Sequence record: MK327935.1
DNA: 64,000 nt
Origin: Escherichia phage vB_EcoM_G2494
Reading direction: 5' to 3' (one strand)
The notes beneath the pieces were generated by a model that did no database searches, had not been told where the DNA came from, and was given only the letters and a program-made list of their open reading frames with translations. The position numbers and the translations under genes were made by a program. Shown piece after piece: positions 21,869 through 22,285 of the stretch (within the stretch, counting starts at the first letter, position 1; each line of letters starts with the position of its first letter).

Positions 21869-22285
21869 TTAGAGAGATTCGGTAAAGGTACGAGCGATAA
21901 CATCACGTTGCTGGTCTGGAGTCAGACTATTGAAGCGCACTGCGTAACCAGAAACGCGAATTGTAAGCTGCGGGTACTTCTCAGGATGTTCAACCGCGTC
22001 AAGTAACATTTCTCGTAACAATACGTTAACATTTAGGTGCTGACCACCTTCGACAACAGGAGCACCATTATCTACAATGACAGGACGGAAGCTAGTTGTG
22101 TGCAGTGCCAGCGAATCGACGTCTTCTGCGGTGATCACATGATCTTCTGCGAAAGTTTTACTAACAATTACTTTAGCGCCGATCAGTGCTTTCGGTTCGG
22201 ATACCAGAATCATAGGAGCGAAGTGTCCACCGATAATAGTACCTTTATGCTCACCTTTCATGATTTGAATTGCTTTAAATTCCAT
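21869..22285 (-). CDS. autonomous glycyl radical cofactor (GrcA/YfiD-like; T4 Y06I-type)
   Basis: 138 aa; C-terminal [12 protein letters not shown]...[39 protein letters not shown] is near-identical to the E. coli GrcA glycyl-radical domain. Confidence 0.85.

Follow-up and report, generated by a model that had tools for sequence, protein, structure and literature searches.

The vs.6 gene of a Krischvirus encodes a stand-alone glycyl-radical domain predicted to repair host pyruvate formate-lyase

The Escherichia coli protein YfiD, also named GrcA, and the bacteriophage T4 protein Y06I, the product of vs.6, are known as "spare part" proteins of pyruvate formate-lyase (PFL). As summarised in PMC8683613, Wagner et al. 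(2001) report that both proteins receive a glycyl radical from the PFL activase, and that their complex with oxygen-cleaved PFL restores PFL activity. Regarding YfiD, its N-terminal half helps the protein to bind cleaved PFL and to acquire the radical (PMC8683613), and the radical of GrcA G102 is handed to C419 of PflB (PMC12338860). According to a 2026 review, the formate-lyases are the sole glycyl radical enzymes with known spare parts. Among phages, Nolan et al. (2006) found that vs.6 matches Gly_radical in each of six T4-like genomes, that of RB49 included, and the T4 gene is annotated as GrcA in RefSeq.

The stretch analysed here (the window) comprises 64,000 nucleotides of Escherichia phage vB_EcoM_G2494 (MK327935.1), a Krischvirus, that is, an RB49-like T4-type coliphage. 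The 2.5 kb around the gene under study are 97-97.7% identical to 48 phage records. In the RB49 annotation this gene is vs.6 (RB49p099), with vs.8 upstream and nrdC.11 downstream, and in phages W115 and Skers it is annotated as "(putative) autonomous glycyl radical cofactor". The Skers protein, already deposited in GenBank, is 100% identical to the window Vs.6. Overall, 1,580 of the 50,697 phage records searched by tblastn contain a Vs.6 homologue. They include T4-like phages that infect many enterobacteria, phages of Aeromonas and Vibrio and an Erwinia jumbo phage; the T5-like phages have shorter homologues.

We conclude that the window gene, from a Krischvirus, is orthologous to T4 vs.6 and a real, probably functional and ordinary member of its kind. 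A first-pass annotation, made from the nucleotide sequence without database searches, had proposed that it encodes an autonomous glycyl-radical cofactor for the repair of oxygen-damaged PFL. This interpretation is the textbook one, because T4 Y06I was shown biochemically to act in this way in 2001. The feature is already known, being a characterised family rediscovered in a previously annotated gene, and it has little weight as a new finding: the characterisation of the T4 orthologue goes back to 2001, the domain was published in 2006, and the identical protein is in GenBank.

Gene organization and expression signals

The CDS of vs.6, a grcA-like gene located at 21869..22285 on the minus strand, was defined from the ORF list, Pfam, TIGR04365, PHROG 1209 and the phage annotations. 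It starts with ATG, ends with TAA and encodes 138 amino acids. A strong Shine-Dalgarno sequence, AAGAGGTGA (22289..22297, minus strand; read from the sequence), lies 3 nt ahead of the ATG and overlaps the stop of an upstream 41-aa ORF. On the other side, the terminator scan and RNA folding identified an intrinsic terminator with a 10-bp stem, AAGCCAATCC/GGGTTGGCTT, and a U-run (21825..21859, minus strand), the stem beginning 9 nt past the vs.6 stop codon. The GC-containing hairpin has a folding energy of -16.2 kcal/mol (z = -4.15), with 0 of 200 shuffles equally stable, and the same hairpin carries a "terminator" annotation in GEC-3S.

Two co-oriented genes precede vs.6: vs.8 (22421..22912, minus strand), identified from the ORF list and the RB49 annotation, and the 41-aa ORF (22296..22421, minus strand), identified from the ORF list and the sequence. 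Both are devoid of Pfam matches. They overlap at TAATG, and a gap of 10 nt separates the 41-aa ORF from vs.6. It is probable that vs.8, the 41-aa ORF and vs.6 constitute one transcription unit that ends at the terminator. Regarding promoters, 15 sigma-70-like matches were found, against 9.5 +/- 3.2 in shuffled sequences; an example is TTGACA-17-GATACT at 22563..22535, within vs.8. As this number is not clearly above the shuffled expectation, no promoter is claimed. The Rfam scan of 20500-23500 gave no matches at E <= 0.1. Two plus-strand ORFs, at 21797..22006 and 22037..22321, were treated as antisense noise.

The M15 endolysin gene and vs.8 are 62 nt apart, and between them lies a 9-bp GC-rich hairpin, ACGGGGAGA ... 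TCTCCCCGT, at 22930-22960 on the minus strand. It has no U-run and may act in RNA processing or stability and not in termination. The region 23393-25582 (minus strand), upstream of the endolysin gene, holds a series of about ten ORFs that are very small (54-88 aa) and strongly hydrophobic, and which in phage W115 are annotated solely as "putative membrane protein".

The early-gene neighbourhood is equivalent to that of T4 vs.6, with vs.8 upstream and regB/vs/tk downstream. However, in T4 the genes vs.8 and vs.6 are separated by vs.7, and vs.5-vs.3 follow downstream, whereas the window has the 41-aa ORF upstream and nrdC.11 downstream. The latter, directly downstream of vs.6 at 21084-21782 (minus strand), is an nrdC.11-type gene for an RlaP / DNA polymerase-beta-family nucleotidyltransferase (PF10127, E = 2.8e-14). 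T4 nrdC.11 lies about 7 kb away, adjoining mobD, and the local gene order therefore differs from that of T4. At 20230-21062 (minus strand), three adjacent small ORFs of 111, 86 and 64 aa have the look of tandem paralogues; they have no Pfam match and have in common motifs such as GYI(K/R)DD.G and C(S/A)HL...(K/R).W.

The radical domain and the proposed function

The C-terminal glycyl-radical domain of Vs.6 comprises residues 78-138 (21872..22054, minus strand), as delimited by identity to GrcA and PflB, AlphaFold and Foldseek. Pfam recognizes a single domain in the protein, Gly_radical (PF01228; residues 78-119, E = 1.5e-16). In the PDB sequence search, the best match is E. coli YfiD/GrcA (6owr, E = 5.8e-33), and the next is residues 698-759 of PflB (E about 5e-27); full-length glycyl radical enzymes aligned over just their last ~55-62 residues. 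Within the last 60 residues of Vs.6, 55 are identical to E. coli GrcA, 54 to T4 Vs.6 and 50 (83%) to E. coli PflB. The near-identity of the C-terminal ~60 residues to GrcA/YfiD, which the first-pass annotation had pointed out together with the motif RVSGYAVRF, was therefore confirmed, the motif being located at residues 110-118. The predicted radical site is Gly113 (codon GGT, 21947..21949, minus strand), assigned by alignment and homologue conservation. It aligns with G102 of GrcA, G734 of PflB and G95 of T4 Vs.6, and it is invariant among the 42 homologues aligned.

The AlphaFold model, built with 42 homologues, has a mean pLDDT of 81, with values of ~82-95 over residues 91-138 and ~67 over residues 78-90. 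For the C-terminal domain, Foldseek returned the NMR structure of YfiD (6owr) as the top match, followed by the C-terminal domains of glycyl radical enzymes, at 0.9-1.6 A rmsd. Vs.6 is a small stand-alone glycyl-radical protein without a catalytic barrel, as are the members of the GrcA-YfiD-Y06I family, which have about 120-140 aa. The Gly_radical domain, with YfiD and the PflB C-terminus as the best matches, bears out the earlier assignment to the autonomous glycyl-radical cofactors.

The profile searches agree with this assignment. PHROG 1209 spans the full length of the protein, with residues 3-138 aligned to profile positions 1-121 (E = 3.4e-51). Among the NCBIfam models, TIGR04365 (autonomous glycyl radical cofactor GrcA) matches the window Vs.6 best, with 133.8 bits. 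The curated cut-off of this equivalog model is 170 bits; E. coli GrcA scores above it (234), and T4 Vs.6 also falls below it (151.1). Because the experimentally validated T4 protein fails too, the cut-off delimits bacterial GrcA and not the spare-part function, and the low score was dismissed as evidence against function.

The N-terminal half, residues 1-77 (22055..22285, minus strand), was defined by alignments to YfiD-type homologues. It is probably homologous to that of YfiD but diverged, and it contains, at residues 18-35, a lineage-specific insertion of ~12-18 residues that is absent from T4 and E. coli. The TIGR04365 alignment and the BLASTP alignment with GrcA both begin at residue 37, and the N-terminal identity is low. 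Among the homologues, Q7 and R67 are nearly invariant and an IVSKT motif is common. AlphaFold predicts several short strands in this half at a pLDDT of about 80-87. As Foldseek gave only low-probability KOW/L14e-like matches for it (probability <= 0.33), no fold was assigned.

Comparison with the characterised proteins shows how the window Vs.6 is related to each of them. With T4 Vs.6 it has 58% full-length identity, and both are stand-alone radical domains in phages that also have nrdD and nrdG; the T4 protein has 120 aa against 138 aa, the difference corresponding to the insertion in the N-terminal half. E. coli GrcA is built in the same way, with a glycyl-radical domain of 60 residues behind an N-terminal half, and has a common C-terminal tail. 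In contrast to the tail, the N-terminal halves are weakly similar, and M93, L95 and E99 of the window Vs.6 are the residues of PflB and not those of GrcA. The spare part stands in for a structural element of PflB, its C-terminus (residues 698-759; 1h16). Unlike PflB, Vs.6 lacks the catalytic barrel of ~700 residues with Cys418/Cys419, and therefore it cannot be an enzyme alone.

These data are best explained if Vs.6 is a stand-alone copy of the PFL C-terminal glycyl-radical domain that would repair O2-damaged host PflB, a reading to which we assign a probability of roughly 0.8. Its mechanism is transferred by homology from the characterised E. coli YfiD/GrcA and T4 Y06I. Expressed from the leftward early-gene arm, Vs.6 would be present early in infection. 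Once O2 has cut host PflB at the radical glycine G734, Vs.6 would bind the cleaved enzyme, its N-terminal half helping, and host PflA (the PFL activase, using SAM and reduced flavodoxin) would abstract hydrogen from Gly113. The Gly113 radical would then give rise to a thiyl radical on PflB C419, restoring pyruvate's conversion into acetyl-CoA and formate. The repair of oxygen-damaged PFL, proposed in the first-pass annotation, gains support from the biochemical demonstration reported for the T4 orthologue Y06I (PMC8683613).

The phage copy would keep the fermentative production of acetyl-CoA, ATP and formate going in microaerobic or anaerobic infection. Unlike GrcA, Vs.6 is phage-encoded and outside the host control of grcA. 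T4-type phages shut off host expression, and an infected cell therefore cannot induce its own grcA, which is the likely reason for the phage to have a copy. An adaptation to anaerobic or oxidatively stressed hosts, as had been suggested, can reasonably be inferred. No fitness phenotype for phage vs.6 was found in the searchable literature.

The similarity to PFL could also have the opposite purpose. Mimics of host proteins are common among phages, and Vs.6 has the exact PflA recognition loop, RVSGYAV. As a decoy or inhibitor, it would mimic the PFL radical domain and soak up PflA or block PflB, stopping host fermentation. Conservation to the GrcA/PflB level, however, extends beyond the loop to the entire 60-residue domain, and a decoy would not need an invariant glycine under strong purifying selection. 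Moreover, the T4 orthologue restores PFL activity in vitro (PMC8683613). We consider a decoy function improbable.

Activation and the relation to nrdD and nrdG

Besides vs.6, the window has two other genes of glycyl-radical systems. The first is nrdD (3635..5497, minus strand), encoding a class III (anaerobic) ribonucleotide reductase (RNR) with its own glycyl-radical domain, RRVSGYLG. It was identified by the Pfam domains NRDD (7e-175) and Gly_radical, and it passes the NCBIfam equivalog NF006732 with 878 bits against a cut-off of 657. The second is nrdG (1724..2227, minus strand), encoding the radical-SAM activase of NrdD, identified by Pfam Fer4_12 (4e-43) and by TIGR02491, which it passes with 165 bits against a cut-off of 126. 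The ORF listed for it, 1724..2233, begins with TTG, and its third codon is the ATG of nrdG.

The first-pass annotation had placed vs.6 alongside these two genes and counted three glycyl-radical-system components. All three are indeed in the window, and they lie on the same strand of the same early-gene arm. However, nrdD is 16.4 kb and nrdG 19.6 kb from vs.6, with no shared operon, and the three do not make one system: the pentapeptide RVSGY is all that Vs.6 and the window NrdD have in common (BLASTP E = 1.2-1.6), and PflA is the activase expected for Vs.6.

A single system would exist if Vs.6 were a spare part for the phage NrdD, whose glycyl radical is likewise a site of cleavage by O2, with NrdG as the activase. 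RVSGY is present in both proteins, and both genes are in one phage genome. Nevertheless, a spare part has to match in structure the domain that it replaces, and Vs.6 has no detectable similarity to NrdD beyond RVSGY, against 83% identity to the PflB C-terminus; in addition, the known spare parts are limited to the formate-lyases (2026 review). This function was rejected, nothing outside RVSGY being similar, and we regard it as very improbable, still more so than a decoy.

As RVSGY is common to NrdD, Vs.6 and PFL, the core loop alone cannot explain the specificity of NrdG versus PflA. A tblastn search of the window with E. coli PflA found a weak match to NrdG alone (E = 0.01). In the phage collection, none of the full-length PflA matches listed is in a T4-type phage: they correspond to E. 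coli phages with small records of 33-40 kb and to fragments that lack annotation, and the other matches are partial, with less than 60% identity. A phage-encoded PFL activase was rejected on the basis of the weak NrdG match in the window and of the T4-type phages having no representative among the matches listed. Since the window has no PFL activase, host PflA, and not the phage NrdG, would be the expected activase of Vs.6, as published for Y06I.

A connection with NrdD could exist through formate. According to Mulliez et al. (1995, cited in PMC13450708), the E. coli anaerobic RNR uses formate as its hydrogen donor, and the formate measured in the GrcA rescue experiments came from PFL (PMC12338860). 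A live PFL could therefore feed the phage NrdD, and the main benefit of Vs.6 would be PFL formate for NrdD, within one anaerobic dNTP pathway, more than host energy metabolism in itself. The presence of nrdD and nrdG in the same early arm as vs.6 is consistent with such a coupling. On the other hand, the genes are 16-20 kb apart, with neither co-regulation nor adjacency, and short Vs.6 homologues are also present in the T5-like phages. We consider the coupling possible but rather unlikely; it would refine the best explanation and not exclude it.

Selection and mosaic evolution of vs.6

Comparison of the radical-domain codons with those of E. coli grcA gave pS = 0.77, which is saturated, and pN = 0.09. 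Only 26 of 60 third codon positions are identical to grcA, and the GC3 of the window vs.6 is phage-like. The gene is under strong purifying selection. Saturated synonymous sites together with a conserved protein indicate an old, selected phage gene and not a recent capture. The best nucleotide match in E. coli genomes is the 3' end of pflB, at 76%. A recent capture from E. coli was ruled out by the 74-75% nucleotide identity to grcA/pflB, the pS of 0.77 and the GC3.

The same data bear on the idea that vs.6 is a non-functional remnant of a captured host pflB or grcA 3' end. In T4-type phages vs.6 is a small gene and not an essential one, and the 3' half of T4 vs.6 is clearly of recent host grcA origin, both of which would suit a remnant. 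Against a remnant, the window copy combines saturated synonymous divergence with a conserved protein and phage-like GC3, and it keeps an intact ORF with a Shine-Dalgarno sequence and a terminator. Furthermore, vs.6 is conserved in 58 of 58 near-identical Krischvirus records and in the 1,580 phage records overall. Of all the explanations considered, we find this one the least credible.

The T4 gene has a different history in this region. Its last ~190 nt are ~98% identical to E. coli grcA, whereas the window counterpart has 74% identity. This tract, in the 3' half of T4 vs.6 (L004 7558-7750), was aligned with grcA of E. coli K-12 (L005 2067-2260) and has abrupt borders; its G+C content is 48%, compared with 33% in the 5' part of the gene. 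The sharp borders and the host-like G+C content of the grcA-like tract suggest that the T4 lineage recently acquired it from the host by gene conversion. The window copy of vs.6 has no grcA-like conversion tract.

In sister Krischvirus phages, the radical-domain half of vs.6 varies in another way. The spacer between vs.6 and nrdC.11 in the window (21783..21868, 86 bp) contains, at about 21812, an empty endonuclease site, recognized by alignment with JK32 and the metagenome contig L008. The sister genomes have a gene of 0.5-0.6 kb inserted at this position, which encodes an endonuclease with NUMOD4 and HNH_3 domains. Two versions of it were found at the site: the JK32-type, in nine records, and the JSE-type, in five records, annotated as "homing endonuclease". 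The comparison of the sister loci covered positions 21783-22110 of the window, 3170-4075 of L007 and 1030-1860 of L008. Both flanks of the window are ~97% identical at the nucleotide level to JK32 and L008. Identity falls to 60-70% from 22110 (JK32) or 22070 (L008) down to 21812.

The JK32-type and JSE-type alleles represent the same gene at the same locus as the window vs.6, with up to 76 of 76 residues of the N-terminal half identical (P0006). Their radical-domain halves, in contrast, have 60-70% nucleotide identity and 41-46 of 60 amino acids identical to those of the window. An identity drop beside an HNH insertion is the usual signature of a free-standing homing endonuclease with a co-converted, probably cleavage-immune flank. 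From these alignments, it looks as if the radical-domain half of vs.6 was swapped together with the HNH homing endonuclease in the sister phages. The window carries the endonuclease-free allele.

The formate coupling with NrdD can be combined with this exchange. In such a combination, the radical domain must fit the host PFL and would therefore act as an exchangeable cassette, as in the grcA overwrite of T4 and the HNH-linked swap of Krischvirus. The combination is tentative, and we place it on a level with the coupling itself. If it holds, the endonuclease-free allele of the window would presumably be cleavable.

Regarding the biology of these phages, vs.6 illustrates well the kind of auxiliary metabolic gene, carried by a phage, whose product would repair a host enzyme. 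The mosaicism of its radical domain, with what appear to be host conversion in T4 and endonuclease-linked cassettes in Krischvirus, makes a tidy case study of recombination in T4-type phages.
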